Virus record (IMG/VR): IMGVR_UViG_2861048470_000006
Origin: a virus
Lineage: Duplodnaviria > Heunggongvirae > Uroviricota > Caudoviricetes
Length of the DNA: 57,518 nucleotides
Strand: one strand, 5' to 3'
The notes under the pieces were generated by a model. That model saw nothing but the letters and a program-made list of their open reading frames with translations. It was not told the DNA's origin and did not search any database. Positions 8,223 through 46,763 of the stretch are shown here, one piece after another (the stretch's first letter is position 1; the number at the start of each line of letters is the position of its first letter). The translations under genes were made by a program, and so were the position numbers.

Positions 8223-8864
8223 TCAGCGACCAATCACCACAACCTGACCACCATCCCCTTCGTCTGCCGTGCTGATCTCCTGAGAAACCACACGTGACCC
8301 CACGCGCATTTCACCGTACAGAACAGGCAGAACATTGCCCTGGGCAACCATGTTATCCAGTGAGGAGAAATAGGTGTTCTGTTTGCCGTTATCCGTTGTC
8401 TGTGTACGGGGAGTTCTGGCTTTCGGTGCCAGCATCTGCGCCACACCACCGAGCACCATACTGGCACCGAGAGAAAACAGCAGATTACTCGCCATAATTC
8501 CTACCCCCGGCATCCATATAGCAACCGCCATAACAGCCGCCCCCAGCACAGCCTGAAACACACCGCCACTTTTGGCTCCTGCCAGACGCGGCACGATATG
8601 GATCACGGCACCATTTTCCAGCGGCTCATTAAGACGGGCAGACAATTCGGTTTCACCTGCATCACGCCCGGCAATGCGTACCTGATACCAGCCGTCGCTC
8701 AGCTTCTGACGAAACGCCGGGATCTGCATGGCCAGCGCCCGGATGGCTTCGGCCCCCGTTTTCACACGAAGGTCGATGCGGCGGCCAAATCGTTGCAAAT
8801 CCCCGTAAAGGCAGATGCGTGCCATTCCCGGTGACGCCAGAGGGAGTGTGTGCGTCGCTGCCAT
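8223..8864 (-). CDS. I: tail assembly protein I
   Basis: 213-aa ORF matching lambda gpI as recalled; overlaps 3' end of K. Confidence 0.9.
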   Translation of the reverse strand: MAATHTLPLASPGMARICLYGDLQRFGRRIDLRVKTGAEAIRALAMQIPAFRQKLSDGWYQVRIAGRDAGETELSARLNEPLENGAVIHIVPRLAGAKSGGVFQAVLGAAVMAVAIWMPGVGIMASNLLFSLGASMVLGGVAQMLAPKARTPRTQTTDNGKQNTYFSSLDNMVAQGNVLPVLYGEMRVGSRVVSQEISTADEGDGGQVVVIGR

Positions 8865-9505
8865 TTGTCGGTATACCTCTCTCGTTTACTCAGTTGTTCA
8901 GGAATATGGTGCAGCAGCTCACCGTCGCCGCAGTAAATGGCGGCATGATTCGGCACCGATGAACCAAAGCAGCACAGCAGCACATCGCCAGGCTGCGCCT
9001 CTGTCAGTGGGACACGGTAAAAACCAGTCGCCTCCATATTGTCAAGATAGAGATTCTGACCGTGACGCCACCAGTCATCCCCGCGATAAAAATCCGGCAT
9101 CTCAATCCCCGCCAGATGATAAGCATCCCGGAACAGTGTGTAACAGTCCGTCACACCGTGCTCAAAGCGCCGCCCGGTGAGATGCGGCACACAGCGGAAC
9201 TTATGAATCGTCCCCCGGCAGACCAGCCACCACGGCAAATCACTCTGCACCTGCAGCCGCCGGTCGGCCTCACTCAGCCAGGGCAGACCACCGGGGTGGC
9301 TGTGGACCAGCGCCACAATCTCACCCTGCATTTCTGCCTGCAGCCAGTCTTCCGGCGACATACGGAAATACGCCTCCGGCTCACCGGAGATATTCGCGCA
9401 GGGGAAATATCTTTCCCCCTCCGGCGTGCTTACCACGAAGCCGCACGACTCCGCTGGCGCACATCGCCGGGCGTGCGCCAGAATCGCTGATTCTGTCTGT
9501 GTCAT
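8762..9505 (-). CDS. K: tail assembly protein K (NlpC/P60 plus JAB/MPN domains)
   Basis: 247-aa ORF matching lambda gpK; HSHPGG JAMM-like motif. Confidence 0.9.
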   Translation of the reverse strand: MTQTESAILAHARRCAPAESCGFVVSTPEGERYFPCANISGEPEAYFRMSPEDWLQAEMQGEIVALVHSHPGGLPWLSEADRRLQVQSDLPWWLVCRGTIHKFRCVPHLTGRRFEHGVTDCYTLFRDAYHLAGIEMPDFYRGDDWWRHGQNLYLDNMEATGFYRVPLTEAQPGDVLLCCFGSSVPNHAAIYCGDGELLHHIPEQLSKRERYTDKWQRRTHSLWRHREWHASAFTGICNDLAAASTFV

Positions 9506-9510
9506 GGGAT

Positions 9511-10209
9511 TTACTGCGAAAGTTTGTTAATGGAAAGGAAGCCGCCAAAGTTGCCGACGTTATTGCGGAACTTACAACCGCTCAGGCATTTGCTGCATTT
9601 ATCCTTCGTGATATCGGACGTTGGCTGGTCATATTCATCCGCGACAGCCGGACCGCTATAACCGCACTCGTCACCGCGATAGGTCCAGGTGCAGGTGTTG
9701 GCCAGCATGATACGTCCCGGAAAAACAGCGCCATCCGTTTCCGTCGGCGTGGACAGTACAAAGGAGGCACTCACCGCGCTCAGTTCGCTGCACTGCTCAA
9801 TGCGCCAGCGGCTGATCACCTCCTGCTCCGGATCGGCATAACTGTTTCCGTTGACGAAGTTCACCGCATCCAGAAAACGGGCGTAAACCTTACGCCGGAC
9901 CACCGTTCCGCCGACCAGACTCTGCATATCTTCCGCCATCCCGGTGACCATACCGTACAGGTTAGAAACCGTCAGCGTGGGGCGCGTACTGGTGCCTTTG
10001 CCATTCAGTTCAAAACCGCTCCCCTGAATGGGATACGGCTGATACTGTCGCCCCTGCCAGGTGACCGGCTCACCTTTTTCGTTCTGCTCATTACAGAAAA
10101 AATAACGTTCTCCACCGACCTCTGTCAGGTCGATTTCCCAGAGCACCACGCTGGCCGACTGCTCCGCACGGGTGCATTCATTCAGTGTTTCCTGCCGGAT
10201 ATCCTGCAT
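9511..10209 (-). CDS. L: minor tail protein L
   Basis: 232-aa ORF matching lambda gpL; C-terminal Cys cluster. Confidence 0.9.
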   Translation of the reverse strand: MQDIRQETLNECTRAEQSASVVLWEIDLTEVGGERYFFCNEQNEKGEPVTWQGRQYQPYPIQGSGFELNGKGTSTRPTLTVSNLYGMVTGMAEDMQSLVGGTVVRRKVYARFLDAVNFVNGNSYADPEQEVISRWRIEQCSELSAVSASFVLSTPTETDGAVFPGRIMLANTCTWTYRGDECGYSGPAVADEYDQPTSDITKDKCSKCLSGCKFRNNVGNFGGFLSINKLSQ

Positions 10210-13547: not shown

Positions 13548-13945
13548 GCAGAAACAGGCTCTGCGGGCCCGGCGTCCTCTGTCTGTTCAGGGGCATTATT
13601 CACCACAAACTCATACATACCAGACAGCCGGTACACCACGTTTTCAGCATGAGAAATTGCCTCCGTGGGCCAGGTGGTAAGCACTTCCTGCTCAATCTGT
13701 TTAACGGCTTCATTCATGGACGGCATCTGCGTCTTCTGCGGATGGTTATGCCACAGGGACATCGCCACCAGAAACGCGCCGGTTCTGATGGCGTCTTCCA
13801 CAGTAAACTTCCGGTTGCTGTCTGACTCCGCCTGTTCTGCCTGCCGTTTCATCAGGGCGAGATGCTCAATACGCTGCAGGGCTGACAGTTCAGAAAGCGT
13901 GACGGTCACACCGTTATGTTCAAATGATTCGGTTTTCAGGAACAT
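13523..13945 (-). CDS. G: tail assembly chaperone G
   Basis: 140-aa ORF ending ...AGKCSTVS, lambda gpG-like; contains slippery site near 3' end. Confidence 0.9.
   Translation of the reverse strand: MFLKTESFEHNGVTVTLSELSALQRIEHLALMKRQAEQAESDSNRKFTVEDAIRTGAFLVAMSLWHNHPQKTQMPSMNEAVKQIEQEVLTTWPTEAISHAENVVYRLSGMYEFVVNNAPEQTEDAGPAEPVSAGKCSTVS
13541..13547 (-). other. programmed -1 ribosomal frameshift slippery heptamer G GGA AAG (G/T)
   Basis: plus-strand ctttccc at 13541-13547 is GGGAAAG on the coding strand, in the G frame as gcG GGA AAG, 6 codons before the G stop, as in lambda. Confidence 0.8.
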
Positions 13946-13960
13946 CGCTGACTCTCCGGA

Positions 13961-14701
13961 TTAACTGGCGGTGACGGTGATTTCTGCAACCGCAGCAAAC
14001 TCACCATTACCGGATACGACCGGAATGTTGACCTTACCTGCAGCAACGCCATTCACGGTGATGGTCATACCACTGACCGACACGGTGGCTTTTGTTTTAT
14101 CCGCTGACACCGCACGGAAGCTCTTGTCAGTTGCACCCTCCGGCTGGAATGCCACGGTCAGCGTGGTGCTCTGCCCTTTCACCACCGAGGAGCTGGCAGG
14201 CGTCACAGTCATACCGGTTGCCGCCGTCACCGTACTGCGATCTTCTGCCATTGACGGACGGCCCACATTGGTGACCTTCACCGTACGGGTGATCACTTCC
14301 TTCGCCGTCACCGCCTTACCGATACTGCTGACCCAGCCACGGAACACATCGACCGTGCCGTTCGGGAAGCGGATTTTATAGGCACGGGTATCGCCTTCAT
14401 TAAACCACGCCAGCAGCGCCTGCTGCCCCTGCTCTCCGGGCATCCACGCCAGCGTGAAGCTGGTATCTCCGGCAGATTTCTGCCCCTGCCCGGTCGCAGT
14501 CCAGTCTGCATCTTCATCATCGAGATAGCTGTCGTCATAGGACTCAGCGGTCAGTTCGCCGGGCGTCAGGTCTTTAACTTTTGCCAGACGCGACCAGTCA
14601 ACGTCTGAAAGCGGATTCGCATAAGGGTCACCGCTTCCCTTATAAACCCACAGGGTGGTCCCGGCACCTTTCACCGGCATTACAGGATTTGGTACAGGCA
14701 T
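13961..14701 (-). CDS. V: major tail protein V (with C-terminal Ig-like domain)
   Basis: 246-aa ORF matching lambda gpV; RBS GAGGACGCT ATG retained next to the IS end. Confidence 0.9.
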
Positions 14702-14769
14702 AGCGTCCTCACATTTGTAACCGGCTCATTTAAACCGTCTGGTCTGTTTCCTCCGGCTCTACAAAAATA

Positions 14770-15447
14770 ATGTCCATCATTTTTAATGGACACTATCGTA
14801 TGAAACACCGGACCTGGATCACTGAAGCTTTACGTCTTCACTTTGAAGAACATTTACCCCGGGTTGTGGCCGGGCGTCGCCTGGGTGTACCAAAATCAAC
14901 AGTTTGTAGTATGTTCGTGCGCTTTCGGAGAGCTGGCCTTTCGTGGCCTTTGCCCGCAGGCATGTCGGAGCAGGAACTTGATGCCTGCCTTTACGGACAA
15001 TTTTCCACGGTACCAGTCGTACGTCCTGAAAGCACCGTTATATCCGAAGCCCCCGTGGTAAAAAAACGTCCCCGGCGGCCCAACTTCCCTTATGAGTTTA
15101 AAATCGCCTTAGTGGAGCAGTCACTGCAGCCCGGAGCCTGTGTGGCGCAGATCGCCCGGGAAAACGGAATCAACGATAACCTGCTCTTCAACTGGCGCCA
15201 TCAATACCGGAAAGGTGGCCTGCTGCCTTCCGGAAAAAATATGCCGGCACTGCTTCCCGTGACGTTAACGCCGGAGCCGGATAATAAAATCCCGGCCCCC
15301 GCACAGGAACCAGAGCAGATAAATACACCGCCCGACAGTCTGTGTTGTGAGCTGGTTCTGCCGGCCGGAACTCTCAGGCTTAAAGGTAAACTGACGCCGG
15401 CGTTATTACAGACACTTATCCGCGAAATAAAAGGGAGCAGCCACTGA
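14770..15447 (+). CDS. IS66-family accessory protein OrfA with extra N-terminal HTH-like extension
   Basis: 225-aa ORF; C-terminal half (RPRRPNFPYEFK...NDNLLFNWRHQYRKG) aligns with OrfA of the second IS66-family copy at 43197. Confidence 0.75.
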   Translation: MSIIFNGHYRMKHRTWITEALRLHFEEHLPRVVAGRRLGVPKSTVCSMFVRFRRAGLSWPLPAGMSEQELDACLYGQFSTVPVVRPESTVISEAPVVKKRPRRPNFPYEFKIALVEQSLQPGACVAQIARENGINDNLLFNWRHQYRKGGLLPSGKNMPALLPVTLTPEPDNKIPAPAQEPEQINTPPDSLCCELVLPAGTLRLKGKLTPALLQTLIREIKGSSH

Positions 15448-15794
15448 TGATATCTCTCCCTGCAGGTTCGCGTATCTGGCTGGTTGCAGGTATCACCGAT
15501 ATGCGAAATGGCTTTAACGGCCTGGCATCAAAAGTTCAGAACGTCCTGAAGGATGACCCGTTCTCCGGACACCTGTTCATCTTCCGCGGACGCCGGGGTG
15601 ACCAGATAAAAGTGTTGTGGGCTGACAGTGACGGACTGTGCCTCTTCACCAAACGCCTGGAGCGGGGCCGCTTCGTCTGGCCAGTCACCCGTGACGGCAA
15701 GGTGCACCTTACTCCGGCTCAGTTATCCATGCTTCTTGAAGGTATCAACTGGAAGCACCCGAAACGAACGGAACGCGCTGGAATCCGCATATAA
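15447..15794 (+). CDS. IS66-family OrfB (TnpB-like)
   Basis: 115-aa ORF, ~75% identical by eye to the OrfB at 43595; conserved [16 protein letters not shown]. Confidence 0.85.
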   Translation: MISLPAGSRIWLVAGITDMRNGFNGLASKVQNVLKDDPFSGHLFIFRGRRGDQIKVLWADSDGLCLFTKRLERGRFVWPVTRDGKVHLTPAQLSMLLEGINWKHPKRTERAGIRI

Positions 15795-15813
15795 CCCGTT
15801 GTAAAGTGAGGAT

Positions 15814-17385
15814 ATGGACACCTCACTTGCTCATGAGAACGCCCGCCTGCGGGCACTGTTGCAGACGCAACAGGACACCATCCGCCAGATGGCTGAATAC
15901 AACCGCCTGCTCTCACAGCGGGTGGCGGCTTATGCTTCCGAAATCAACCGGCTGAAGGCGCTGGTTGCGAAACTGCAACGTATGCAGTTCGGTAAAAGCT
16001 CAGAAAAACTTCGTGCAAAAACCGAACGGCAGATACAGGAAGCACAGGAGCGAATCAGCGCACTTCAGGAAGAAATGGCGGAAACGCTGGGTGAGCAATA
16101 TGACCCGGTACTGCCATCCGCCCTGCGCCAGTCTTCAGCCCGTAAACCGTTACCGGCCTCACTTCCCCGTGAAACCCGGGTTATCCGGCCGGAAGAGGAA
16201 TGCTGTCCTGCCTGTGGTGGTGAACTCAGTTCTCTGGGATGTGATGTGTCAGAGCAACTGGAGCTTATCAGCAGCGCCTTTAAGGTTATCGAAACACAAC
16301 GTCCGAAACAGGCCTGTTGCCGGTGCGACCATATCGTGCAGGCACCAGTACCTTCAAAACCCATTGCACGCAGTTATGCCGGAGCGGGGCTTCTGGCCCA
16401 TGTTGTCACCGGGAAATATGCAGACCATCTGCCGTTATACCGCCAGTCAGAAATATACCGTCGTCAGGGAGTGGAGCTGAGCCGTGCCACACTGGGGCGC
16501 TGGACAGGTGCTGTTGCTGAACTGCTGGAGCCGCTGTATGACGTCCTGCGCCAGTATGTGCTGATGCCCGGTAAAGTCCATGCTGATGATATCCCCGTCC
16601 CGGTCCAGGAGCCGGGCAGCGGTAAAACCCGGACAGCCCGGCTGTGGGTCTACGTCCGTGATGACCGTAACGCCGGTTCACAGATGCCCCCGGCGGTCTG
16701 GTTCGCGTACAGTCCGGACCGGAAAGGTATCCATCCACAAAATCACCTGGCCGGTTACAGCGGTGTGCTTCAGGCCGATGCTTACGGTGGTTACCGGGCG
16801 TTATACGAATCCGGCAGAATAACGGAAGCCGCGTGTATGGCTCATGCCCGGAGAAAAATCCACGATGTGCATGCAAGAGCGCCCACCTACATCACCACGG
16901 AAGCCCTGCAGCGTATCGGTGAACTGTATGCCATCGAGGCAGAGGTCCGGGGCTGTTCAGCAGAACAGCGTCTGGCGGCAAGAAAAGCCAGAGCCGCGCC
17001 ACTGATGCAGTCACTGTATGACTGGATACAGCAACAGATGAAAACACTGTCGCGTCACTCAGATACGGCAAAAGCGTTCGCATACCTGCTGAAACAGTGG
17101 GATGCACTGAACGTGTACTGCAGTAATGGCTGGGTGGAAATCGACAACAACATCGCAGAGAACGCCTTACGGGGAGTGGCCGTAGGCCGGAAAAACTGGA
17201 TGTTCGCGGGTTCCGACAGCGGTGGTGAACATGCGGCGGTGTTGTACTCGCTGATCGGCACATGCCGTCTGAACAATGTGGAGCCAGAAAAGTGGCTGCG
17301 TTACGTCATTGAACATATCCAGGACTGGCCGGCAAACCGGGTACGCGATCTGTTGCCCTGGAAAGTTGATCTGAGCTCTCAGTAA
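15814..17385 (+). CDS. IS66-family transposase OrfC
   Basis: 523-aa ORF with N-terminal leucine zipper, CxxC...CxxC zinc-finger and DDE core, parallel to ORF at 43992. Confidence 0.9.
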
Positions 17386-17415
17386 ATATCAATACGGTTC
17401 TGACGAGTCGCTTAC

Positions 17416-17811
17416 TCACATTTCATAGGTAATGACATAAGTCAGATCGGCTGAACTCCACAGGCCCGCATCATCGTCGCGCCGGTAGTCATAGCCGCTG
17501 GCCACCATACTGGTGATCAAATCTGACAGTGCCGGGATATCACTCATCACCGGATAAATCCGGGACTCCATCCACGAATCCAGCTCTGAATCCGGCACCT
17601 GAGCAGGCAGGAAAACTTCGATATGCAGCTCCGCCTGCCATGTATCGCTGTCCAGCTCTTCGCCCGTGTATTCAGCGCCGGTGAGATAAACGGCAACTGC
17701 CGGAAAATCCGCCCCATCAAAAACAGCGGGGCGACCATCAAAAAACGTCGCCCCGGTGTCATGCTTCTCCAGTGCATCCAGTACGGCTGCACGGAGTTCA
17801 GTATGTTTCAT
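17416..17811 (-). CDS. U: tail terminator protein U
   Basis: 131-aa ORF matching lambda gpU; its stop codon lies within the right-hand target duplication. Confidence 0.9.
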   Translation of the reverse strand: MKHTELRAAVLDALEKHDTGATFFDGRPAVFDGADFPAVAVYLTGAEYTGEELDSDTWQAELHIEVFLPAQVPDSELDSWMESRIYPVMSDIPALSDLITSMVASGYDYRRDDDAGLWSSADLTYVITYEM

Positions 17812-18386
17812 CGCTTTATTACTATCCTCAGTTGATGCTGCAGCGCATAGCCCAGCTCTTTCGGAAGACGTTCACGCCGTATCCGTTCAATATTCTGTTT
17901 AAACGCCGTGGTAAGCGGCACCGCCATCGGGATTTTCACCACATCAATGGGGTAACGGTTTTTCCCGGCCACACGCTGCATGACATGCCACCGGCCATTT
18001 TTCAGTTGCTGAATAAACGCGCCGGGAATACGACGGTTTCCCACCACAAGCACGCTGCCGCCACCTTTCAGGGATGAACGCTGCCCCTTTTTACGACGCC
18101 TGCGGCGCGAAAGGACAACCCGCGCGTTACCCAGCTTGATTACGGGCAAATCCCCCCGGTTAACCCTGATTCTGGCCTGCGGATTTTTGACCGTGGCCCT
18201 TTTCAGCCTGGCCCTTTCCTTTACCAGTTTCCGGCGTACCTTTGTCTCACGGGCAACCTGTGCCACCGACTGCGATATCGCGGATGAAGCAACGCGGTTA
18301 ATGGCCATTGCGGCGGCACCGGGCACCGCCGTTCTGCTGATACGGCTGAGGTTTTCAACGGCCTGCTCAAGACCTTTTATGGCCAT
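17808..18386 (-). CDS. Z: tail completion protein Z
   Basis: 192-aa ORF starting MAIKGLEQAVENLSRIS, lambda gpZ-like. Confidence 0.9.
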   Translation of the reverse strand: MAIKGLEQAVENLSRISRTAVPGAAAMAINRVASSAISQSVAQVARETKVRRKLVKERARLKRATVKNPQARIRVNRGDLPVIKLGNARVVLSRRRRRKKGQRSSLKGGGSVLVVGNRRIPGAFIQQLKNGRWHVMQRVAGKNRYPIDVVKIPMAVPLTTAFKQNIERIRRERLPKELGYALQHQLRIVIKR

Positions 18387-21933: not shown

Positions 21934-25614
<3,681 letters not shown>

Positions 25615-25640
<26 letters not shown>

Positions 25641-30040: not shown

Positions 30041-30115
<75 letters not shown>

Positions 30116-30118
30116 ATA

Positions 30119-30194
<76 letters not shown>

Positions 30195-32009: not shown

Positions 32010-33293
32010 ATGACAGCAGAAATAGCCGTATTTAACAAGACCGCAGTAGCTTTAGCCGCAGATTCAGCTGTAACGATTTCTGGAGGCGGCAAACATAAAA
32101 TCTATAATGGCGCTGAAAAGCTTTTCGCTCTCACTAAACATCATCCTGTAGGTTTGATGGTATATGGAACTGGTGATCTCTGCACAGCTCCATGGGAGCT
32201 TATCATTAAGGCTTATAGAAAGGATTTAGGCTCTAAATGTTTTGACTCTTTGGAGGAATATGCTGAGGATTTCTTCAATTATCTACAGTCAGCTAAATCA
32301 ATCATCACACCAGGTATGCGTGAGGCTCATCTTTATCACTTCCTGAGCGAGATTGTATTCAGCATGCTTGTTGATGCTTTTTCTGAAGGTCTCGAACCAA
32401 CATATCTCGTTAACTTCGATAAGAATCAATTTGTTACAGACCTCACGAATTATTGCAACGATCTCCTTACAAAATTATCTGATATTAATTACTTTGATGG
32501 TTTTACTCCGGATGATGAACAAGCAGCCCAAACCTATGCTTCATCAATTACCCAACGCATCATTGCTCAAAAGTTTAGTGACTTTGATTCAATATCCATA
32601 ACTCCACAGTTGACAAAAGCAGTTAGTGATGTATTGGCAGCTATGATATGCAAGCAAAGTGATATTGGTTCCGTCTCTGGGATTGTGATTGCAGGTTATG
32701 GCGATAAAGACTATTACCCTAAAGTATTATCATATGAAGTTTGTGGCTTCTTTAATGATAAAATAAGGAAAACCACAGATGCTGACAAGTGCTGCATCAC
32801 TCCTAATTGCGGCGTGACTCCCTTTGCGCAAGAGGATGAAGTTTCTGCTTTCATGCAAGGAGCTAGTTCACATCTTATCCAAAATCTTCATGCTGAGTAT
32901 CAACGTTCTATCGGCGATTTACTTGATGGTATTGATTCAGTAATCACAGATTTGGTGCCCACTTCAGATATCGAAGGAGCCAAGGATGCTATAGTTGATG
33001 TAGTGCGCAGAACTGTTTCCGATTGCAAGGGGCGAATTGATAGCTTTGTCCGAGAAAACTATGTTGACAAAGTCGTAAATATGATCGAGTTTTTACCCAA
33101 GCAAGATTTAGCTTATATGGCTGAATCATTAGTAAATTTAACCGCTTTCAAGCGCAAGGTCTCCGATGATACTGAAACAGTGGGAGGCCCCATAGATGTT
33201 GCAATCATTTCTAAAGCTGATGGTTTTATCTGGGTTAAACGTAAGCACTATTTTGCAAAAGAACTGAACCATCACTACTTTTCACGGTCATAG
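32010..33293 (+). CDS. 427-aa protein with N-terminal HslV/proteasome-beta-like Ntn-hydrolase region (Thr2) and uncharacterised C-terminal half
   Basis: N-terminus MTAEIAVFNKTAVALAADSAVT aligns position-for-position with HslV [21 protein letters not shown] as recalled; GxGD-like segment GLMVYGTGDL; lower GC than flanks; opposite strand to phage late genes. Confidence 0.5.
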   Translation: MTAEIAVFNKTAVALAADSAVTISGGGKHKIYNGAEKLFALTKHHPVGLMVYGTGDLCTAPWELIIKAYRKDLGSKCFDSLEEYAEDFFNYLQSAKSIITPGMREAHLYHFLSEIVFSMLVDAFSEGLEPTYLVNFDKNQFVTDLTNYCNDLLTKLSDINYFDGFTPDDEQAAQTYASSITQRIIAQKFSDFDSISITPQLTKAVSDVLAAMICKQSDIGSVSGIVIAGYGDKDYYPKVLSYEVCGFFNDKIRKTTDADKCCITPNCGVTPFAQEDEVSAFMQGASSHLIQNLHAEYQRSIGDLLDGIDSVITDLVPTSDIEGAKDAIVDVVRRTVSDCKGRIDSFVRENYVDKVVNMIEFLPKQDLAYMAESLVNLTAFKRKVSDDTETVGGPIDVAIISKADGFIWVKRKHYFAKELNHHYFSRS

Positions 33294-33499: not shown

Positions 33500-33862
33500 T
33501 TATTTACATGCAATAACGCTCGTAATACCCTCTACAAAACCAATTGCAGTTTGTAATTCCTTTCTAATCGTGCCATCTGAACACCTTCTCTTTTTGGCAA
33601 TAGTGCGTAATGAGATACCAATAACAAAGTGGGCTATGATGAGCTCATATTCCTCTGGTTTATACCTTCTCAACCGAGCCACACAACTGTCTATCATAAT
33701 GCCTTCGTCATCATCACACTGAATCCGTGACTTTTTACCATGAGGTAAAAGCCCCTTGAAGCCCGCTGCTATCGGTTGCCAATCGACACCACTATTTTCT
33801 GCTGCAGCCCATGCCCCCCAGCGGTCTAAAACCTCATACATATCACGCCCCATTACTATCAC
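33500..33862 (-). CDS. late antiterminator Q (phage-82/QuuD type)
   Basis: motifs LDRWGAWAA...IAAGFKGL...CSDG match QuuD-type Q as recalled; probable start at internal ATG (33853). Confidence 0.7.
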   Translation of the reverse strand: MIVMGRDMYEVLDRWGAWAAAENSGVDWQPIAAGFKGLLPHGKKSRIQCDDDEGIMIDSCVARLRRYKPEEYELIIAHFVIGISLRTIAKKRRCSDGTIRKELQTAIGFVEGITSVIACK

Positions 33863-36888: not shown

Positions 36889-37719
36889 TTGAAAGTTATT
36901 AGCTTAATCAATATGAAAGGTGGCGTTGGTAAGTCAACATTGGCTACCAATATTGCTAATCATCTTTCAGATAAACTTGGGCAAAAAATATTATTAATAG
37001 ATATCGACCCACAATTTAACGCAACGCAATGTGTAATGGATACAAGCAAATATGTTGCACATATGAAAAGCGGAGGCGATAGCATATGTGATATTTTTTA
37101 TAGTTCAAAAATTCGACTATCTACAATGACTGGTCCTTTAGTTAACACACCTAAAGAATTAGCCGATATAACACCAATTCAATTAAATGATAATTTTCAC
37201 ATTGTTCCCGGAAGCCTTGGGCTATATAAAATTGAAATGAAACCAGGAGAAGGGATAGAAAACAAGCTTAGACGCTTTCTTAAAATCCATGAAAATGACT
37301 ATGATTATGTCATAATTGATACCCCACCAACCCCATCAGTTTGGATGTCCAGCGCATTAATTGCATCTGATTATTACCTCATTCCAGCCAAACCCGATCC
37401 TCTTTCGATCACTGGTATCGATCTATTAGATAGCATTATAAATGAGAAGAGAGAAAATTTCGATCTTAAGATTGAATGTGCGGGCATAGTTTTTAATATG
37501 GTTGAAGGTAATAGTAATTTATATGAGGAAAGTCTTCGTTACTTCAATAATCAAAAACGTTGGCGTAATAAGATCTTTAAATCATATTTGAGCAAACGTA
37601 CTGAGTTGGCAAGAAATCAAACAAGAGGCTTATTTATTAACAATTTAACGGATGAGGATATGAAGTTTTCGCTGTCTAAAATTACTGACGAACTTCTCTC
37701 TAGAGTAGGTGACTTATGA
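36889..37719 (+). CDS. ParA/MinD/Soj-family P-loop ATPase
   Basis: 276-aa ORF, TTG start with AGGAG RBS; deviant Walker A KGGVGKST, DIDPQ and Walker B-like VIIDTPP motifs; very AT-rich. Confidence 0.8.
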   Translation: MKVISLINMKGGVGKSTLATNIANHLSDKLGQKILLIDIDPQFNATQCVMDTSKYVAHMKSGGDSICDIFYSSKIRLSTMTGPLVNTPKELADITPIQLNDNFHIVPGSLGLYKIEMKPGEGIENKLRRFLKIHENDYDYVIIDTPPTPSVWMSSALIASDYYLIPAKPDPLSITGIDLLDSIINEKRENFDLKIECAGIVFNMVEGNSNLYEESLRYFNNQKRWRNKIFKSYLSKRTELARNQTRGLFINNLTDEDMKFSLSKITDELLSRVGDL

Positions 37720-38222
37720 CTGACAAAAAAAATAACTCAAAAGAAATTAAGCAACTGTTAAACTTTTTAGAGGAGTTTTCCTTTATTTCAAAAAAATTAT
37801 CAAGAATCAACTTTATTGAATTACTTCAAGATAGTTATACTGATAATTTAGAAGTTAACGAAAGAAATTCAAAGTCCAAAAAAAATGATATTAAAGGTTT
37901 CCTTGTTGGGTATCTTCCGAGGATTTTATTAGACAAAGATCTCTTCCAAAAAAATAAAGATATAGATGATTTTGCACGCATGTTAGGTATCGAAATCAGC
38001 AGGCCTGAAAAAAGATCTAGAGAGGAAATGATCGGCATAATCGTGTGTGACGTTCACGAGAAAAACTCATCCGATTTAGGTAAGGCTTATAATATTATCA
38101 ATTCAATGTCAAATAACCCTCTAGTTTTGAGTAGAATAAAAGAGAGGAAGAACCTTTCTAGCGCTCAAAATGAGATATATGACTGGAATGAAGTTATAAA
38201 AGATATATTCAATAAGGACTAA
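37716..38222 (+). CDS. hypothetical protein, second gene of ParA-like operon
   Basis: 168-aa ORF overlapping ParA stop by 4 nt (ATGA); Lys/Asn-rich; no motif recognised. Confidence 0.5.
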   Translation: MTDKKNNSKEIKQLLNFLEEFSFISKKLSRINFIELLQDSYTDNLEVNERNSKSKKNDIKGFLVGYLPRILLDKDLFQKNKDIDDFARMLGIEISRPEKRSREEMIGIIVCDVHEKNSSDLGKAYNIINSMSNNPLVLSRIKERKNLSSAQNEIYDWNEVIKDIFNKD

Positions 38223-38224
38223 CA

Positions 38225-38920
38225 ATGTCGAGAGAAGTAAACAGCGATTTCACTGAGTTAGTTACTTATTTCTCTGAATATAAATTAAAAAATGTTTTCG
38301 AGAATATTAACTCAAGAGGGAAAATAAGCATGATACATAAGAGATATTATTCTTTTATGTGCCTTGTTTACTGTTTGTATCATTTCTCCAAGGAGAAAAT
38401 AGACGCCAACTCATTGGAGCGATTGCAAGAAGCTTCATCTGACCTTGGTACAGCTATGTTTATGGTTATAAATGGTGCATACAAACCAGCAAATCTAATG
38501 ATGCGAAGTTATATTGAAAATTCTTTAAAATCAATCGGTTGCTTACTAGATCCTTCAATACTTGAAGAAAAATCATTGTTTAAGGTAATTGAACAAACTG
38601 GGGAACATCCTGTCTTCAAAAAAAATCCTCTACTACATGAAACTTTAAAAGCTGAATACTCTTCGTTATGCAGTCACGTACATACAGCTACTGTAAAAGA
38701 AATGGCTCACATAAAAGCTTTAAATGTTTTTCCCGAAATAGACTTGGTTAAAATAGATAATATTTCGAAGGTGATTGATAAGGTGGTTAAGACTATGATA
38801 TCAACTATCATAAGAATTTTTCCTGATGTTTTCTTTTCCTTTGCACCTGAGTATCGAGAAAAAATCCTCCTTAGCTTAACCTCTGCACAACGAGCCTCAC
38901 TTCATTCCTTAAGTGATTAA
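38225..38920 (+). CDS. hypothetical protein, third gene of ParA-like operon
   Basis: 231-aa ORF 2 nt after previous stop; no motif recognised. Confidence 0.5.
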   Translation: MSREVNSDFTELVTYFSEYKLKNVFENINSRGKISMIHKRYYSFMCLVYCLYHFSKEKIDANSLERLQEASSDLGTAMFMVINGAYKPANLMMRSYIENSLKSIGCLLDPSILEEKSLFKVIEQTGEHPVFKKNPLLHETLKAEYSSLCSHVHTATVKEMAHIKALNVFPEIDLVKIDNISKVIDKVVKTMISTIIRIFPDVFFSFAPEYREKILLSLTSAQRASLHSLSD

Positions 38921-38933
38921 CTAACAAGTATGA

Positions 38934-38966
38934 CATAAAAACTATCCTATTGTGATAGTTTTTATG
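38934..38966 (+). terminator. 13-bp-stem hairpin directly after the three-gene operon (putative terminator)
   Basis: CATAAAAACTATC-ctattgt-GATAGTTTTTATG; coordinates anchored to stop at 38918-38920. Confidence 0.4.
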
Positions 38967-39116
38967 TTCATTAAGATGACTATATCAGGAATTATTGCCG
39001 AATTTTAATTTTCATATTGATTTTACTATCTCTCACCAACTCTTGTAAGTATCCTTCCGCCACAAGCGGACCATGTGCATTTAAATATCTGACCTAACGT
39101 GCCGTAACGCCGCAAT

Positions 39117-39140
39117 GTCCGCTTCTGGCACAAAGCAGAC
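39117..39140 (+). repeat. 24-bp imperfect direct repeat, copy A (GTCCGCTTCTGGCACAAAGCAGAC)
   Basis: 20/24 identity with copy B at 42790-42813; internal dyad symmetry GTCCGC...GCAGAC. Confidence 0.4.
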
Positions 39141-39202
39141 GCCCACTCTCACGCGAATGCTTTGCCCTTGACTTGCCAACAACCGTATCGCTTGCTCCGC
39201 AA

Positions 39203-40495
39203 CTATGGTTTTTTATTAGAATCTTCGCCACTAAATAAATTATAATAAATTGATTTTATTAGATATCTGTCAGAATCTATATGGTCAGCACGAGTAGCAT
39301 GCTCTAATGTTTCAAATGCTAGGGTTTGTGCGGCTTCAGCAAAAATTCCAGGCCAACCCTTACTCAGCATCGACAGTCCTTTAAGGATCCTTATCTGAAT
39401 TTCCCTCATACTGGCACCATCGCGCGCAACAGGTGAGAAAAAGTCTTCAAGTAGATCGTTATTCTGAAGTGGTGCAACATGTACAGAAGGATATTTCACT
39501 TCTATTTCATCAGATTTATTCTGCGCGTAAGCGGAAAGTATACGTACACCTCTGCCAATGACATCAATGGCGGTTCCAGGATCGTTCACTGCGGGGGAAA
39601 GGGCTCGGCAGGCTATTTCGGCCATGACGCTAAGACAAAATCGGGGGTCCTGAGCAAATGAACGTACATCCGAGACAATAATCGTCTCAAGTAAATCGGT
39701 GCTGATTGATGACTCCTGGCCCTGACTCAGGTACAAAACTGGCGTGGACGGATGTATGAAACTGCCCGGCTGCGCCACGAGGTATACATGACGGGGATCA
39801 TTGGTCAGCAGCTTGCTGAGTTTCACCATATCAACATATTCAACATAGCCAATCTTTTTCGGATAAACTGCAACCGTTCCTTTCGGCTGTTCATTGTTCT
39901 CAAGCCATGGATATCCGCCGAGACAGGGATTTCTTGCTCTCGCAATAAATGTTTCGATGGCCGCCTGTTCTACTTTTGCCGTTGTCTCACCAACCCTCCC
40001 CAGAGAGGTCAAATGCTGTATCCAGCGAAGCAATGTGATGAGGATTAAGGCAATGACAACCAGTGTTACAATGAATAAAATGACTCTCCCCCTTTCTCCA
40101 TAAGCTCCCATATTGAGGGCAATAATCCCTACCAGACTGAAGAGAAAAGAACCGATGAAGGTGGCCAGTACATTTTGTGTGGTGACGTCTTCAACAACTA
40201 AACGAGTAGCTCTGGGAGTCACATTAGTAGTGGCTGAACCGTAGGCTGTGACCATGATGCTCAGCGAAAATGTGGTCACTGCCAGCATACTCGATGCCAG
40301 TATGTTCAGAATGTTATCGACTGCTTCCGCACCAACCTTCACGGAAACCGACTCAGGTATCATTGATTTAAAAAGAATTGATAAAAGGGCCGTTATTATT
40401 GCGACAATTGCGAATAACGTTGCCCTGAACCATAGTTTTTTAAATGTCTGCTTCAGCATCCATTTCCAGCGTGAAATCATTCTGCATTCCCTCAT
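39203..40495 (-). CDS. DUF2254-like multi-TM membrane protein
   Basis: 430-aa ORF with N-terminal TM helices and large soluble C-terminal domain; family from recollection. Confidence 0.5.
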   Translation of the reverse strand: MRECRMISRWKWMLKQTFKKLWFRATLFAIVAIITALLSILFKSMIPESVSVKVGAEAVDNILNILASSMLAVTTFSLSIMVTAYGSATTNVTPRATRLVVEDVTTQNVLATFIGSFLFSLVGIIALNMGAYGERGRVILFIVTLVVIALILITLLRWIQHLTSLGRVGETTAKVEQAAIETFIARARNPCLGGYPWLENNEQPKGTVAVYPKKIGYVEYVDMVKLSKLLTNDPRHVYLVAQPGSFIHPSTPVLYLSQGQESSISTDLLETIIVSDVRSFAQDPRFCLSVMAEIACRALSPAVNDPGTAIDVIGRGVRILSAYAQNKSDEIEVKYPSVHVAPLQNNDLLEDFFSPVARDGASMREIQIRILKGLSMLSKGWPGIFAEAAQTLAFETLEHATRADHIDSDRYLIKSIYYNLFSGEDSNKKP

Positions 40496-40543
40496 ATTGC
40501 AGCCGGGATAAATAAATGCCGCCTCTGTGGCGGCATGTTGCTG

Positions 40544-42547
40544 TTAACGAACCAGATGCAGGAAGTGCAGGTGTTTTTCGTACTGGTCCAGTATGTCATT
40601 AATCAGCTGTTCCTGATTCCAGCCCATTACATCATAATTTTGGCCGCCCTCTTTGAGATAGACTTCAGCGCGATAATATCGATGTTGTTCACTCTGCTGC
40701 TCATCATTATCCAGCGCAGCGAGCGCGAAGGTCGGTGAGTTATACCCGCGAAGCCTCACTTCATATATATAATTCAGCTCGTTGCCCAAATCGACTTCAA
40801 GGCGAATACGATCCTCGGCGGCGTCACTGATGTGGCTTATCGTTCCCTGCTTGTTAAGTTCCTCCTGAACCAGCGTCATGGCGGGTTGGATAATGTCGTC
40901 CATAAAACGTTTCACAAGAGAGCGCTTCGGCAAATACGCGATATTGCGTAACCTTCTCTGCCAGGGAATTGGGTTACGTGCAGCCGTAGGAGCAATAGTC
41001 GCCATGCTAAGGCTTTCACGCTTGGTCAAATCCCGACGCAGGGCTTTTAACAGTCCGTATATGGATATTAATAAGATAACTGAGAAGGGCAATGCACTCG
41101 CTATCGTTACGGTTTGCAACGCACTCAGCCCCCCTGCGATCAGCAGGGCAATAGCAACAACGCCCATGAGCAATGCCCAGAAAATTCGCTGCCAGACGGG
41201 CGTGTTTGCCACCCCACCTGATGCCAGAGTATCCACAACCATTGCCCCCGAATCAGCAGACGTTACAAAGAAGACGATGACCATCGCCATTGCAATGAAT
41301 GACAGCACGGAAGAGAACGGGAAATGCTCCAGGAAATTAAACAGGGCAAGCGCAACATCCTGCTGAACGGTATTGGCGAGGTCAGTGGCGCCCTGGTTCA
41401 TGATGAGATAGATGGCGCTGTTTCCAAACACCGTCATCCACATGAGCGTAAAGCCGGCGGGAACAAACAACACGCCAGTCACGAACTCACGAATTGTCCT
41501 GCCGCGGGAAACGCGTGCAATGAACATACCTACAAACGGCGACCATGAAAGCCACCATCCCCAGTATAATAATGTCCAGCCCCCCAGCCAGTTGCTCGAC
41601 TTGGGTTCATACGCGTAAAGGTTGAACGTTTTACTCACCAGTTCCGACAGATAACCACCCGTATTTTCCACAAATGACTTCAGCAGAAGCACAGTGGGAC
41701 CCAGGCACAAGACCAGCGCCAGGAGCAACACCGCCAGGCCCAGATTAAGCTCAGACAGGATGCGTATTCCCTTGTCCAGGCCGGACACCACCGAAATCGT
41801 CGCTAACCCCGTGATGACCACGATCAAAATGACCTGTACCGTTTCATTGATGGGCACGCCGAAAAGATGGTTCAAACCGGCATTCACCTGCAATACACCG
41901 TAACCCAGCGATGTTGCAACGCCAAAGACAGTGCCTATCACGGCGAAGATATCAACCGCGTGGCCTATAGGCCCGTAAATGCGATCGCCGATAATGGGAT
42001 AGAGCGCAGAACGCAGCGTTAAAGGCAGACCGTGACGGTAACTGAAAAAGGCCAGAATCAGCGCCACGATGGCATAAATTGCCCATGCGTGCAGACCCCA
42101 GTGGAAGAACGTCAGGCGCATGGCTTCCTTCGCTGCCGCAACGGTCTCTGGAGTGCCGACAGGTGGCGAAAGATAATGCATCACAGGTTCGGCAACGCCA
42201 AAGAACATCAGGCCGATCCCCATCCCTGCCGAAAAAAGCATCGCGAACCAGGAGTGGTAGCTGAAATCAGGCTGCGCATGGTCTGGGCCCAGCTTTATAT
42301 CACCGTAACGTGAGAGTCCAAGGAACGTGACGCTCAGTAAAATCAGGGCCACAGCAAGTATGTAGAACCAGCTGGCATTCGTGAAGATTTGTTGCTGAAG
42401 TAGTTTAAAATTTTTGTCGGCGACATCCGGGAATACGGCGGCAAAGGCGACAAGAAGGAAAATTAGCAAAGCAGATGTAAAGAATACCGCTTTGTTAACC
42501 TGGCTTGTAGACTTCTTTGGGGTTGTATCATTTTCACTCATAATCAT
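40544..42547 (-). CDS. BCCT-family transporter (BetT/BetU-like choline/betaine transporter)
   Basis: 667-aa ORF; conserved BCCT segments (GDIKLGP, WTLLYWGWWLSWSPFVGMFIARVSRGRTIREF) parallel E. coli BetT as recalled. Confidence 0.85.
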   Translation of the reverse strand: MIMSENDTTPKKSTSQVNKAVFFTSALLIFLLVAFAAVFPDVADKNFKLLQQQIFTNASWFYILAVALILLSVTFLGLSRYGDIKLGPDHAQPDFSYHSWFAMLFSAGMGIGLMFFGVAEPVMHYLSPPVGTPETVAAAKEAMRLTFFHWGLHAWAIYAIVALILAFFSYRHGLPLTLRSALYPIIGDRIYGPIGHAVDIFAVIGTVFGVATSLGYGVLQVNAGLNHLFGVPINETVQVILIVVITGLATISVVSGLDKGIRILSELNLGLAVLLLALVLCLGPTVLLLKSFVENTGGYLSELVSKTFNLYAYEPKSSNWLGGWTLLYWGWWLSWSPFVGMFIARVSRGRTIREFVTGVLFVPAGFTLMWMTVFGNSAIYLIMNQGATDLANTVQQDVALALFNFLEHFPFSSVLSFIAMAMVIVFFVTSADSGAMVVDTLASGGVANTPVWQRIFWALLMGVVAIALLIAGGLSALQTVTIASALPFSVILLISIYGLLKALRRDLTKRESLSMATIAPTAARNPIPWQRRLRNIAYLPKRSLVKRFMDDIIQPAMTLVQEELNKQGTISHISDAAEDRIRLEVDLGNELNYIYEVRLRGYNSPTFALAALDNDEQQSEQHRYYRAEVYLKEGGQNYDVMGWNQEQLINDILDQYEKHLHFLHLVR

Positions 42548-42789
42548 TTATTCCATTAATTAAATCCGCACTGGATAGAAGGTACTACCTCTCACAGAGT
42601 AGCAAAGTTCAACTGGCTATGCGGGATTAATCGGAATGCATGGTGGAATGAGTGCCGATACAAATCATCCTATATTCTAAGGAGTTTTAAGTTACTCAGC
42701 CTGCCAATTACTGGGGCATTTAATTTGTATGATCTGTATCAAAGCTGGGATATAAGTTAAGTGAAGTATATTAGGCACGAATTACCAGC

Positions 42790-42813
42790 GTCTGCTCTTG
42801 GCACAAAGCGGAC
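42790..42813 (+). repeat. 24-bp imperfect direct repeat, copy B (GTCTGCTCTTGGCACAAAGCGGAC), abutting IS3
   Basis: see copy A; last 3 nt GAC are the IS3 target duplication. Confidence 0.4.
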
Positions 42814-42878
42814 TGATCTTACCCAGCAATAGTGGACACGCGGCTAAGTGAGTAAACTCTCAGTCAGAGGTGACTCAC

Positions 42879-43125
42879 ATGACAAAAACAGTATCAACCA
42901 GTAAAAAACCCCGTAAACAGCATTCGCCTGAATTTCGCAGTGAAGCCCTGAAGCTTGCTGAACGCATCGGTGTTACTGCCGCAGCCCGTGAACTCAGCCT
43001 GTATGAATCACAGCTCTACAACTGGCGCAGTAAACAGCAAAATCAGCAGACGTCTTCTGAACGTGAACTGGAGATGTCTACCGAGATTGCACGTCTCAAA
43101 CGCCAGCTGGCAGAACGGGATGAAG
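42879..43125 (+). pseudogene. insE: IS3 orfA (insE) 5' portion, interrupted by nested ISEc8-like element; remaining orfA codons resume at 45568
   Basis: MTKTVSTSKKPRKQHSPEFRSEALKLAERIGVTAAARELSLYESQLYNWRSKQQ... reads through to RDE then hits the IS end; continuation [17 protein letters not shown] found after the nested element. Confidence 0.85.
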
Positions 43126-43196
43126 GTAAGCGTACAGCCTGAACCGTCTGGTCAGAATCTGACAAATTAGACAAAGTGGTGTCCACCAAATAAGTA

Positions 43197-43598
43197 GTGG
43201 GAACCAAAGTGTCAGATATGCAGAAAAATGTGACTCCCGGCAGGCGAAAAGGCTGCCCTAATTATCCTCCCGAATTTAAACAGCAGCTCGTTGCTGCCTC
43301 CTGTGAACCCGGGATATCCATCTCAAAACTTGCTCTTGAAAATGGCATTAACGCCAATCTGTTGTTCAAATGGCGACAACAATGGCGCGAGGGAAAGCTG
43401 CTATTACCTTCTTCAGAGAGCCCCCAGCTACTTCCTGTGACTCTCGATGCAGCTGCCGAACAGCCAGAATCGCTCGCAGAGGACCCGGAAACCCTCAGTA
43501 TCAGCTGTGAGGTAACGTTCCGGCACGGGACGCTCCGCTTCAATGGCAATGTCAGCGAAAAGCTCCTGACTCTGCTGATACAGGAACTGAAGCGATGA
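43197..43598 (+). CDS. IS66-family OrfA
   Basis: 133-aa ORF. Confidence 0.85.
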   Translation: MGTKVSDMQKNVTPGRRKGCPNYPPEFKQQLVAASCEPGISISKLALENGINANLLFKWRQQWREGKLLLPSSESPQLLPVTLDAAAEQPESLAEDPETLSISCEVTFRHGTLRFNGNVSEKLLTLLIQELKR

Positions 43599-43942
43599 TC
43601 CCGTTACCTTCCGGGACCAAAATTTGGCTGGTTGCCGGTATCACCGATATGAGAAATGGCTTCAACGGCCTGGCTGCGAAAGTACAAACGGCGCTGAAAG
43701 ACGATCCCATGTCCGGCCATGTTTTCATTTTCCGGGGCCGCAGCGGCAGTCAGGTTAAACTGCTGTGGTCCACCGGTGACGGACTGTGCCTCCTGACCAA
43801 ACGGCTGGAGCGTGGGCGCTTCGCCTGGCCGTCAGCCCGTGATGGCAAAGTGTTCCTTACGCAGGCGCAGCTGGCGATGCTGCTGGAAGGTATCGACTGG
43901 CGACAGCCCAAGCGGTTGCTGACCTCCCTGACCATGCTGTAA
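43595..43942 (+). CDS. IS66-family OrfB (TnpB-like)
   Basis: 115-aa ORF, 4-nt overlap with orfA. Confidence 0.85.
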
Positions 43943-43991
43943 ATCTCTTTATCCTGGTTGTCACAGAATAAGCCCGGTAAAATACGGGCTT

Positions 43992-45530: not shown

Positions 45531-45624
45531 CACATCCCCGTCAATACGGTTCTTGCTGCACGCTTACGGATGAAGAGCTGGCTATCCTCCAAAAGGCCGC
45601 GACATACTTCGCGAAGCGCCTGAA

Positions 45625-46491
45625 ATGAAGTATGTCTTTATTGAAAAACATCAGGCTGAGTTCAGCATCAAAGCAATGTGCCGCGTGCTCCGGGTGGCCC
45701 GCAGCGGCTGGTATACGTGGTGTCAGCGGCGGACAAGGATAAGCACGCGTCAGCAGTTCCGCCAACACTGCGACAGCGTTGTCCTCGCGGCTTTTACCCG
45801 GTCAAAACAGCGTTACGGTGCCCCACGCCTGACGGATGAACTGCGTGCTCAGGGTTACCCCTTTAACGTAAAAACCGTGGCGGCAAGCCTGCGCCGTCAG
45901 GGACTGAGGGCAAAGGCCTCCCGGAAGTTCAGCCCGGTCAGCTACCGCGCACACGGCCTGCCTGTGTCAGAAAATCTGTTGGAGCAGGATTTTTACGCCA
46001 GTGGCCCGAACCAGAAGTGGGCAGGAGACATCACGTACTTACGTACAGATGAAGGCTGGCTGTATCTGGCAGTGGTCATTGACCTGTGGTCACGTGCCGT
46101 TATTGGCTGGTCAATGTCGCCACGCATGACGGCGCAACTGGCCTGCGATGCCCTGCAGATGGCGCTGTGGCGGCGTAAGAGGCCCCGGAACGTTATCGTT
46201 CACACGGACCGTGGAGGCCAGTACTGTTCAGCAGATTATCAGGCGCAACTGAAGCGGCATAATCTGCGTGGAAGTATGAGCGCAAAAGGTTGCTGCTACG
46301 ATAATGCCTGCGTGGAAAGCTTCTTTCATTCGCTGAAAGTGGAATGTATCCATGGAGAACACTTTATCAGCCGGGAAATAATGCGGGCAACGGTGTTTAA
46401 TTATATCGAATGTGATTACAATCGGTGGCGGCGGCACAGTTGGTGTGGCGGCCTCAGTCCGGAACAATTTGAAAACAAGAACCTCGCTTAG
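45625..46491 (+). CDS. insF: IS3 transposase OrfB (DDE integrase-like catalytic domain)
   Basis: 288-aa ORF; normally expressed as OrfAB fusion by -1 frameshift. Confidence 0.9.
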
Positions 46492-46592
46492 GCCTGTGTC
46501 CATATTACGTGGGTAGGATCAGACAACCACGCTAGCTCTACCCTGTGCCACAAAATGTCAATTTGCATCTGAACTAATGCACTTTAATCTCG

Positions 46593-46763
46593 TCACTTCA
46601 ATAAATACCGAACATCCCCCTGATAAAACGACAATATGCGCTGCATAACTTCGCTCTTCCGGCACTCGCGACAGATTATGTTTAGGCGACTGTCGTAGCG
46701 ACGTATTTCTCCGTCAGGTAATGACCAGATAAGGTCCGGATCAACCACAACCGGTTTCTTCAG
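46593..46763 (-). pseudogene. 3' fragment of a ~140-aa phage replication-region gene split by IS100
   Basis: in-frame continuation (…KLKKPVVVDPDLIW…) of the 5' fragment once one copy of the duplication is removed. Confidence 0.7.

Follow-up and report, generated by a model that had tools for sequence, protein, structure and literature searches.

ISCro1 at the U-V tail gene junction of a lambda-like prophage from ETEC-lineage Escherichia coli

The window, i.e. the whole stretch of 57,518 nucleotides analysed here, carries a lambda-like prophage integrated in ydfJ of an ETEC-lineage E. coli. The prophage runs from a ydfJ fragment to the integrase gene and spans about 56.3 kb, of which four IS elements make up about 8.4 kb. 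The following features are relevant (TSD, target-site duplication):

13961-14701, minus strand: gene V, lambda-type major tail tube protein, 246 aa, intact, native 7-nt leader kept
14709-14716, no strand: left TSD copy TCACATTT, which reads AAATGTGA on the phage strand and supplies part of the V Shine-Dalgarno sequence
14717-17415, plus strand: ISCro1, IS66 family, complete, 2,699 bp, in antisense orientation relative to the phage late operon
14717-14742, plus strand: left terminal inverted repeat GTAACCGGCTCATTTAAACCGTCTGG
14766-14797, minus strand: 14-bp hairpin followed by a U run, just inside the left IS end, predicted to be terminator-like toward V
14770-15447, plus strand: tnpA, long form of 225 aa, PF01527 (HTH_Tnp_1) at residues 102-159
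15447-15794, plus strand: tnpB, IS66 Orf2 accessory protein, 115 aa (PF05717, E 4.7e-40; NF033819)
15814-17385, plus strand: tnpC, IS66 DDE transposase, 523 aa (PF03050, E 2.5e-103; PF13007, PF13005, PF13817)
17390-17415, plus strand: right terminal inverted repeat, ending in GAGTCGCTTAC
17416-17423, no strand: right TSD copy TCACATTT, identical to the last 8 nt of U, TGA stop included
17416-17811, minus strand: gene U, lambda-type tail terminator, 131 aa, intact
33500-33862, minus strand: late-gene antiterminator Q, intact (PF06530, E 1.3e-43; annotation of strain 120899)
43126-45567, plus strand: second IS66-family element of 2,442 bp, with tnpA (133 aa), tnpB (115 aa) and tnpC (512 aa)

The original prediction of an IS66-family element of 2,699 bp agrees with the domain profiles and with the boundaries at 14717-17415. 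The 5' end of the element is GTAACCGGCTC and its 3' end GAGTCGCTTAC; the inverted repeats start with 5'-GTAA and are imperfect (GTAACCGGCTC... versus GTAAGCGACTC...), the left one matching the reverse complement of the right end at 18 of the first 26 positions. All three genes are intact, and the tnpA stop overlaps the tnpB start in a TGATG (15445-15449). TnpA scores 294 bits against the 190 positions of NF038385 (IS66_access_TnpA) over residues 13-206 and extends N-terminally of HTH_Tnp_1 by about 83-98 aa. TnpC keeps the leucine-zipper, zinc-finger, DDE and C-terminal domains, with 283 of the 284 profile positions of PF03050 covered and 478 bits for NF033517 (cutoff 180). Judged by these TnpC domains, the presence of tnpA and tnpB, the GTAA inverted repeats and the 8-bp TSD, the element is a member of the IS66 family.

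At an identity of at least 99%, the element matches 1,780 E. coli records, in which it is annotated as 'IS66-like element ISCro1 family transposase'. In over a thousand E. coli genomes, copies annotated by NCBI as ISCro1 family are 99.9-100% identical to it at the nucleotide level, those of many genomes differing by 0-1 base. The copies fetched for comparison differ by 0-4 SNPs, and 8-bp duplications flank 25 out of 25 other copies fetched. Published data for ISCro1 (PMC12115866) list 2,699 bp and TSDs of 8 bp; its name goes back to Citrobacter rodentium ICC168, which has 24 copies of it and no IS that is more expanded (PMC3072379). By NCBI annotation and published usage, the element in the window is the known ISCro1, from which it shows no substantial difference in length, TSD or tnpA-tnpB-tnpC order.

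Alignment of both flanks confirmed that the octamers at 14709-14716 and 17416-17423, proposed earlier to be a duplication, are identical copies. On the plus strand, TCACATTT occurs just twice in the whole 57.5-kb window; two specified positions would share an 8-mer by chance with a probability of 1.5e-5. Only the terminal C of the IS allows the repeat to be read as 9 bp (CTCACATTT), and it is correctly read as the canonical 8-bp duplication. In lambda (J02459) and ETEC strain 120899 the junction reads ...TATGAAATGTGAGGACGCTATGCC... with one AAATGTGA only, whereas the window has one copy on each side, at U and at V. As the octamer is present once in lambda and in the six sister ETEC genomes whose flanks are 100% identical, it represents a true target duplication and not a repeat native to uninterrupted prophages. 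Duplications of this kind normally result from the staggered cutting of the target.

The U/V flanks are 97.7% identical to lambda J02459 8348-9538 at the nucleotide level, and the gene order Z-U-V-G-T-H, taken from the annotation of strain 120899, is that of lambda. The stop-spacer-start sequence TGAGGACGCTATG of the lambda U-V junction (U, J02459 8552-8947; V, 8955-9695) is the same as in the window. However, the junction is uninterrupted in lambda and in all 174 matching phage records, but interrupted here. The duplicated octamer corresponds to the last 8 bases of U, so that the upstream copy closes U and the downstream copy restores the sequence preceding V. With both copies placed in this way, the U and V ORFs and the V ribosome-binding site (Shine-Dalgarno GAGG at 14707-14710) survive. 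The original prediction that the U stop as well as the V Shine-Dalgarno sequence and start are preserved thus holds, both proteins (131 and 246 aa) being full-length.

The U-V junction was found to be contiguous in 3,692 of 5,426 E. coli genomes, six of which, all ETEC, are 100% identical to the flanks of the window over 1,200 bp. The prophage of strain 120899 differs from the window by 1 mismatch in 14,716 bp, 0 in 6,928 bp and 4 in 18,375 bp, i.e. by about 5 SNPs over about 35 kb of non-IS sequence (about 24 over about 50 kb if the diverged immunity end is included). In this strain the U/V site is empty and ISCro1 resides in the terminase gene A instead. According to these comparisons, the U/V insertion is recent and later than the split from near-identical sister strains. 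A move within the lineage from terminase A to U/V is not favoured, since the terminase A target site GTTCATCG is single and unoccupied in the window, and since the private SNP of the 120899 copy (185 A>T) is missing from the window copy. Intact ORFs, intact ends and lineage-specific insertions in sister lineages suggest that ISCro1 is putatively transposition-active in this ETEC lineage. The lineage-specific positions, U/V in the window and terminase A in strains like 120899, are well suited to typing strains on a fine scale. The locus is very probably explained by a recent, simple transposition of ISCro1 into the U-V junction of a lambda-like prophage.

At least four further E. coli genomes have ISCro1 at the exact U/V site, with identical TSD and orientation, in different prophage backgrounds, among them the MS1657 prophage, which is otherwise annotated as intact. 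This could be taken to mean that the insertion is old and was inherited or imported together with the tail module, for example as a passenger of a transmissible phage. We consider this highly improbable and reject inheritance with the tail module: the site is empty in the sister ETEC prophages with 100% identical flanks, and the other carriers diverge from the window and from one another in their left flanks, 14-40 bp or less from the IS; their IS copies differ from that of the window at only 1-2 of 2,699 bases. Moreover, the window copy has C at position 615, as do the copies of the ETEC lineage, whereas most others, including all of these carriers, have T (615 C>T). ISCro1 at U/V was not found in any of 50,697 phage records. 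The exact site of the window has been struck by ISCro1 independently at least four times, with eight events within 37 bp. These repeated hits in other E. coli are the only mildly unusual point of the insertion.

Further recurrent ISCro1 sites, in both orientations, are located at -21, at +415 and at GATCAAAC in gene E. Altogether, 48 genomes carry ISCro1 within about 2.4 kb of U/V. Our search joins pieces on the same strand only and was run with the IS in both orientations; it yielded 29 genomes with sense and 19 with antisense insertions, so that the apparent orientation bias of the first five insertions in lambda-like late regions, all antisense, turned out to be a query artefact. The target consensus derived from 35 left junctions is weak, with C at -10 in 24 of the 35 and a duplicated octamer that is roughly G-R-T-N-A-W-T-C. 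We rejected this consensus as the cause of a hot spot, because TCACATTT fits it poorly. A scan of genome contigs gave mainly draft contig ends of one Escherichia genome, with left flanks only. Literature searches revealed nothing specific on IS66 target preferences. We only tentatively propose that ISCro1 has a true insertion hot spot at the lambda-type U/V junction and, more generally, strong site preferences beyond the weak consensus; on balance we lean slightly away from this view. Since insertions at this site break no ORF and Q should read through, some of the IS-bearing prophages might still make phage and ferry ISCro1 between hosts. Target choice by IS66-family transposases is poorly understood; for its study, the recurrent same-site insertions are a natural data set, with a target defined to 40 bp.

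Coordinates and strands are in line with the earlier statement that the antisense IS separates the late promoter from V through tfa. Late transcription, which must cross the IS, begins downstream of Q, here a short protein of 120 aa and of the PF06530 type. On induction, Q-modified RNA polymerase would have to traverse 2.7 kb of antisense IS. One may ask whether this untranslated insert acts as a polar block, leaving V through tfa strongly under-expressed, so that induction would give rise to tail-less heads. We regard such a block as unlikely, although several features of the insert would speak for it. The longest ORF within the IS in the direction of late transcription has 161 codons, which would leave the RNA exposed to Rho. 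The hairpin and U run on the late-transcript strand, located 45-80 nt before V and overlapping the annotated tnpA start on the plus strand, are part of a region (14745-14815) with a predicted folding energy of -27.1 kcal/mol (z = -6.0). The original prediction had also considered that tail expression may depend on an outward IS promoter; we rejected an outward-facing promoter at the IS end, as no sigma-70-like candidate was found across 13900-17900, and thus there is none to compensate for a block. In addition, ISCro1 in the afa promoter region, a non-antiterminated context, decreased downstream afaA transcription by 2.5 log2 (PMC8764528).

On the other hand, the hairpin is AU-rich with three G-C pairs only and did not meet the criteria of the terminator scan. 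The V ribosome-binding site is unchanged, and its occlusion by IS-derived RNA structure was rejected, because no meaningful change in accessibility is predicted (probability of the Shine-Dalgarno sequence being unpaired 0.22 with and 0.26 without the IS). Q is intact, and polarity is reportedly suppressed by lambda Q (Forbes and Herskowitz, 1982). Q-loaded polymerase complexes are able to bypass intrinsic as well as Rho-dependent terminators (PMC4914094). By analogy to the Q proteins of lambda and phage 82, tail-gene transcription would be reduced modestly at most, and the earlier view that tail expression is probably attenuated is likely to be overstated. Some polarity is possible in view of the hairpin with its U run and of the afa result. 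The U-IS-V junction would offer a clean natural test of the extent to which Q antitermination overcomes the polarity of a 2.7-kb untranslated insert.

The capacity of the lambda head is about 51 kb. With about 56.3 kb the prophage exceeds this limit; assuming a lambda-like capacity on the basis of its lambda-like head genes, it is most likely decaying and cannot be packaged, and the insertion would then have no adaptive role. In such an oversized prophage with four IS elements, tail production would matter little for phage yield. Cargo genes, such as the iss homologue and the BCCT transporter gene, are still intact. This, and the fact that two sister lineages suffered independent ISCro1 hits in morphogenesis functions (U/V here, terminase A in 120899), might be seen as a sign of selected domestication, in which the insertion benefits the host by crippling virion production while lom, iss/bor-like genes or other cargo are expressed. 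There is very little to recommend this idea: two hits do not exceed what is expected of an abundant IS that often lands in lambda-like structural regions (the above 48 genomes), and a phage would hardly be crippled effectively by an insertion that breaks no ORF. Prophages and other mobile elements are preferred places of IS accumulation (PMC3072379, citing the O157 case). IS-mediated decay is known from lambdoid prophages of pathogenic E. coli, for example with IS629 in EHEC O157; several IS elements within one prophage leave it defective or oversized. The IS family is a different one in the window, and the insertion sits in the 7-nt intercistronic spacer between U and V, which is why no ORF is broken. 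Recent transposition into U/V most likely adds another step to the decay of this lambdoid prophage through a known IS, an ordinary event of little importance.

The second IS66-family element, of the ISEc8/ISEc22 type, is nested in an IS3 copy, flanked by an 8-bp duplication (GGATGAAG at 43118-43125 and 45568-45575), and missing from this site in the sister strains. It shares with ISCro1 the three-gene layout, the GTAAGCG.../...CGCTTAC ends and the 8-bp duplication. Identity between the two elements amounts to 60% for TnpC, 76% for TnpB and 44% for TnpA (over the shared part), in good agreement with the earlier estimate of about 75% for orfB. The extension of about 90 aa noted for orfA corresponds to about 83 extra N-terminal residues, as residue 99 of the ISCro1 protein aligns with residue 16 of its counterpart; the long TnpA form of ISCro1 belongs to a recognised subfamily (NF038385), whereas the ISEc8/ISEc22-type copy encodes a shorter TnpA.

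The element between the tail genes (14717-17415) is 2,699 bp long, with first bases GTAACCGGCTC, last bases GAGTCGCTTAC and an imperfect inverted repeat at its ends (18 of the first 26 positions match). Judged by their profile matches, its three plus-strand ORFs represent an IS66-family trio, and the ORFs on either side were assigned to lambda U and V:

14770-15447, plus strand, TnpA, 225 aa (HTH_Tnp_1; NF038385, 294 bits)
15447-15794, plus strand, TnpB, 115 aa (PF05717, E 4.7e-40)
15814-17385, plus strand, TnpC, 523 aa (full-length DDE_Tnp_IS66, E 2.5e-103; also IS66-family zinc-finger, leucine-zipper and C-terminal modules)
ending at 17416, minus strand, U, 131 aa
starting at 14701, minus strand, V, 246 aa

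We identify the element as ISCro1, an already known IS that behaves here as expected. At ≥99% identity it matches 1,780 E. coli records, annotated as 'IS66-like element ISCro1 family transposase', and 25 other fetched copies differ from that of the window by 1-4 bases. In a published case, an ISCro1 insertion likewise measures 2,699 bp and is flanked by an 8-bp duplication (PMC12115866).

The original prediction had noted differences from the second IS66-family copy of the window (2,442 bp), correctly so: TnpB is 76% and TnpC 60% identical; TnpA shares 44% across the common C-terminal part and is ~83 residues longer at the N-terminus in ISCro1. As the matching profile NF038385 indicates, TnpA proteins of this long form make up a recognised subfamily and are no anomaly. 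Within TnpA residues 1-98 (14770-15060), which hold this extension, no Pfam domain was detected at E≤0.001; its '...GLSWPLPAGMSEQELDACLYG' segment may be similar to the N-terminal part of IS21-family IstA proteins. The annotated tnpA ATG (14770) lies within the palindrome of an antisense hairpin (14766-14800), directly followed by a second in-frame ATG at 14800 (MKHRTW...). Since the palindrome covers the first ATG and the NCBIfam profile aligns only from residue 13, the second ATG may be the true start, with the hairpin as a possible regulator of tnpA translation.

The octamer TCACATTT occurs at 14709-14716 and 17416-17423, with no further plus-strand copy in the window; the direct repeat appears as 9 bp solely because the final base of the element is C. 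Over J02459 8348-9538 the flanks share 97.7% identity with lambda, whose U and V occupy 8552-8947 and 8955-9695. Lambda reads ...TATGAAATGTGAGGACGCTATGCC... with AAATGTGA once, whereas in the window one copy closes U and a second precedes V, and the V Shine-Dalgarno (GAGG) and spacer are kept thanks to the duplication. Of 5,426 complete E. coli genomes searched, 3,692 contain as one contiguous stretch the empty site rebuilt from the window with 600 bp per side, and six of them, all ETEC, match it at 100% identity (120899, 103605, 204446, 504237, ETEC-2265 and TW10722). Because lambda has a single copy and related genomes a contiguous empty site, the octamer is a target duplication and not native sequence. 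The proposed 8-bp duplication is thereby borne out, the flanking 8-mers being identical on re-inspection, and the structural reading of element length, ends and neighbouring ORFs was right.

The prophage resides in ydfJ; a fragment of this gene and the stop codon of the integrase mark the limits of the window. Compared with the prophage of the sister ETEC strain 120899, the window differs at one position over 14,716 bp, at none over 6,928 bp and at four over 18,375 bp. In 120899 the U/V site is unoccupied, and ISCro1 lies within its terminase gene A with duplication GTTCATCG (locus L003, 26892-31524); the same prophage in all six of these ETEC genomes has ISCro1 inside terminase A and none at U/V. 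Gene A of the window (23715-25640, 641 aa) is intact and contains GTTCATCG once. A SNP private to the terminase A copy (185 A>T) is absent from the window copy; both copies share 615C, which is T in most others. Near-identical prophages, the empty U/V site in 120899 and a separate terminase A copy show that two lineages gained separate ISCro1 insertions in one prophage after their divergence; the U/V insertion of the window is recent and local.

In 19 genomes with antisense and 29 with sense orientation, ISCro1 lies no more than ~2.4 kb from a lambda-type U/V junction. We mapped 18 of these copies, including that of the window, with position 0 as the window insertion point, positive values toward U/Z and negative values toward V.

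ISCro1 insertion sites near U/V and elsewhere in lambda-like late regions
position 0, same site, duplication and orientation: GXU-23-25-310, OZ040555, MS1657/VTB96929v and the window
position -8, adjoining octamer TATCGTCC: one event
21 bp into V (-21), octamer TTTGGTAC, V codons 2-5: three events, both orientations
positions +34, +55, -68, -89, +119, +742, +1054: single events each
position +415: two events, opposite orientations
Z 3' end, duplication GTTGATGC: loci L053 and L060, recurrent in unrelated genomes
gene E, duplication GATCAAAC: three events (loci L054, L055, L056), both orientations
D/E spacer, duplication AAAAAAGC: locus L002, beside a hairpin

Eight independent events fall into 37 bp (14680-14716; loci L001, L007, L008, L048, L044, L045, L046 and L047), far over uniform expectation. 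At position 0 we counted, window included, four distinct left-flank haplotypes within 40 bp, and the copies in the other genomes have 1-2 base differences in the IS, all with 615 C>T. Flank haplotypes vary among nearly identical IS copies; at least four independent events have hit the exact window site. Recurrence at late-region sites other than U/V also involves unrelated genomes and both orientations. Selection for intact ORFs does not account for the cluster, since the -21 insertions destroy the start of V. In a logo from 35 left junctions the consensus is weak (C at -10 in 24/35; octamer roughly G-R-T-N-A-W-T-C), and it was rejected as the cause of U/V recurrence, TCACATTT being a poor fit. 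Together this suggests strongly preferred sites beyond what the weak consensus explains; the recurrence of sites is the one mildly new point.

None of 50,697 phage records had ISCro1 at U/V, so that circulation of IS-bearing phages as virions is unsupported. Only two records matched ISCro1 at all: LC645450.1 ('Escherichia phage PPwrbA_EC3734', locus L050, 63 kb), probably a deposited prophage, with a full copy and duplication CTAAAATC, and GER2 with a partial match (97.7%).

The insertion places a further 2.7 kb of antisense IS between the late promoter and V-tfa, as originally described. Attenuated V-tfa expression was predicted from this, which is plausible and probably overstated. In favour of some polarity, the longest ORF inside the IS on the late-transcript strand has just 161 codons, and a very stable hairpin with a U run behind it spans 14766-14797 (71-nt segment, -27.1 kcal/mol, z = -6.0). 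In ST131, ISCro1 cut downstream afaA transcription by 2.5 log2 (PMC8764528). Against strong polarity, the hairpin is AU-rich and below the criteria of the terminator scan, which found 4 terminator-like sites in the whole scanned region against 3.6 expected by chance, and predicted accessibility of the V Shine-Dalgarno is 0.22 with and 0.26 without the IS. The Q gene of the prophage is intact (PF06530, E 1.3e-43), and lambda Q was reported by Forbes and Herskowitz in 1982 to suppress polarity. An outward IS promoter, suggested as an alternative source of tail transcripts, lacks support, since a scan of 13900-17900 found no sigma-70-like promoter (2.1 expected by chance). On these predictions a modest drop in tail-gene expression is possible and strong attenuation unlikely.

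For phage production this effect matters little. The prophage spans ~56.3 kb, of which four IS elements make up ~8.4 kb:

ISCro1
43126-45567, IS66-family element of 2,442 bp within an IS3 copy, duplication GGATGAAG, a window-specific insertion
the IS3 copy hosting it
IS100

Without them, ~48 kb remain, a lambda-sized genome. Lambda packages ~78-105% of 48.5 kb; as 56 kb exceeds this range, the lambda-like head proteins encoded here are not expected to package such a genome efficiently. In 120899, the annotation gives the side tail fibre gene as truncated. Given IS load, excess size and this truncation, the U/V insertion is one step of ordinary IS-driven prophage decay.

The IS cluster (42704-48717) is rearranged relative to 120899, with IS100 inverted on the opposite side of IS3. 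Adjoining it, the nin/replication region carries non-phage cargo common to the sister strains (36889-42547: one gene each for a ParA-family protein, a DUF2254 protein and a BCCT-family transporter, plus two hypothetical genes). A 427-aa ORF without Pfam match (32010-33293, plus strand), 'hypothetical' in 120899, is placed between Q and the lysis genes, and late transcription would cross it in antisense. Two tRNA genes, tRNA-Gly(TCC) and tRNA-Thr(TGT), are located at 30041-30194 (minus strand) between a methyltransferase gene and the lysis genes.
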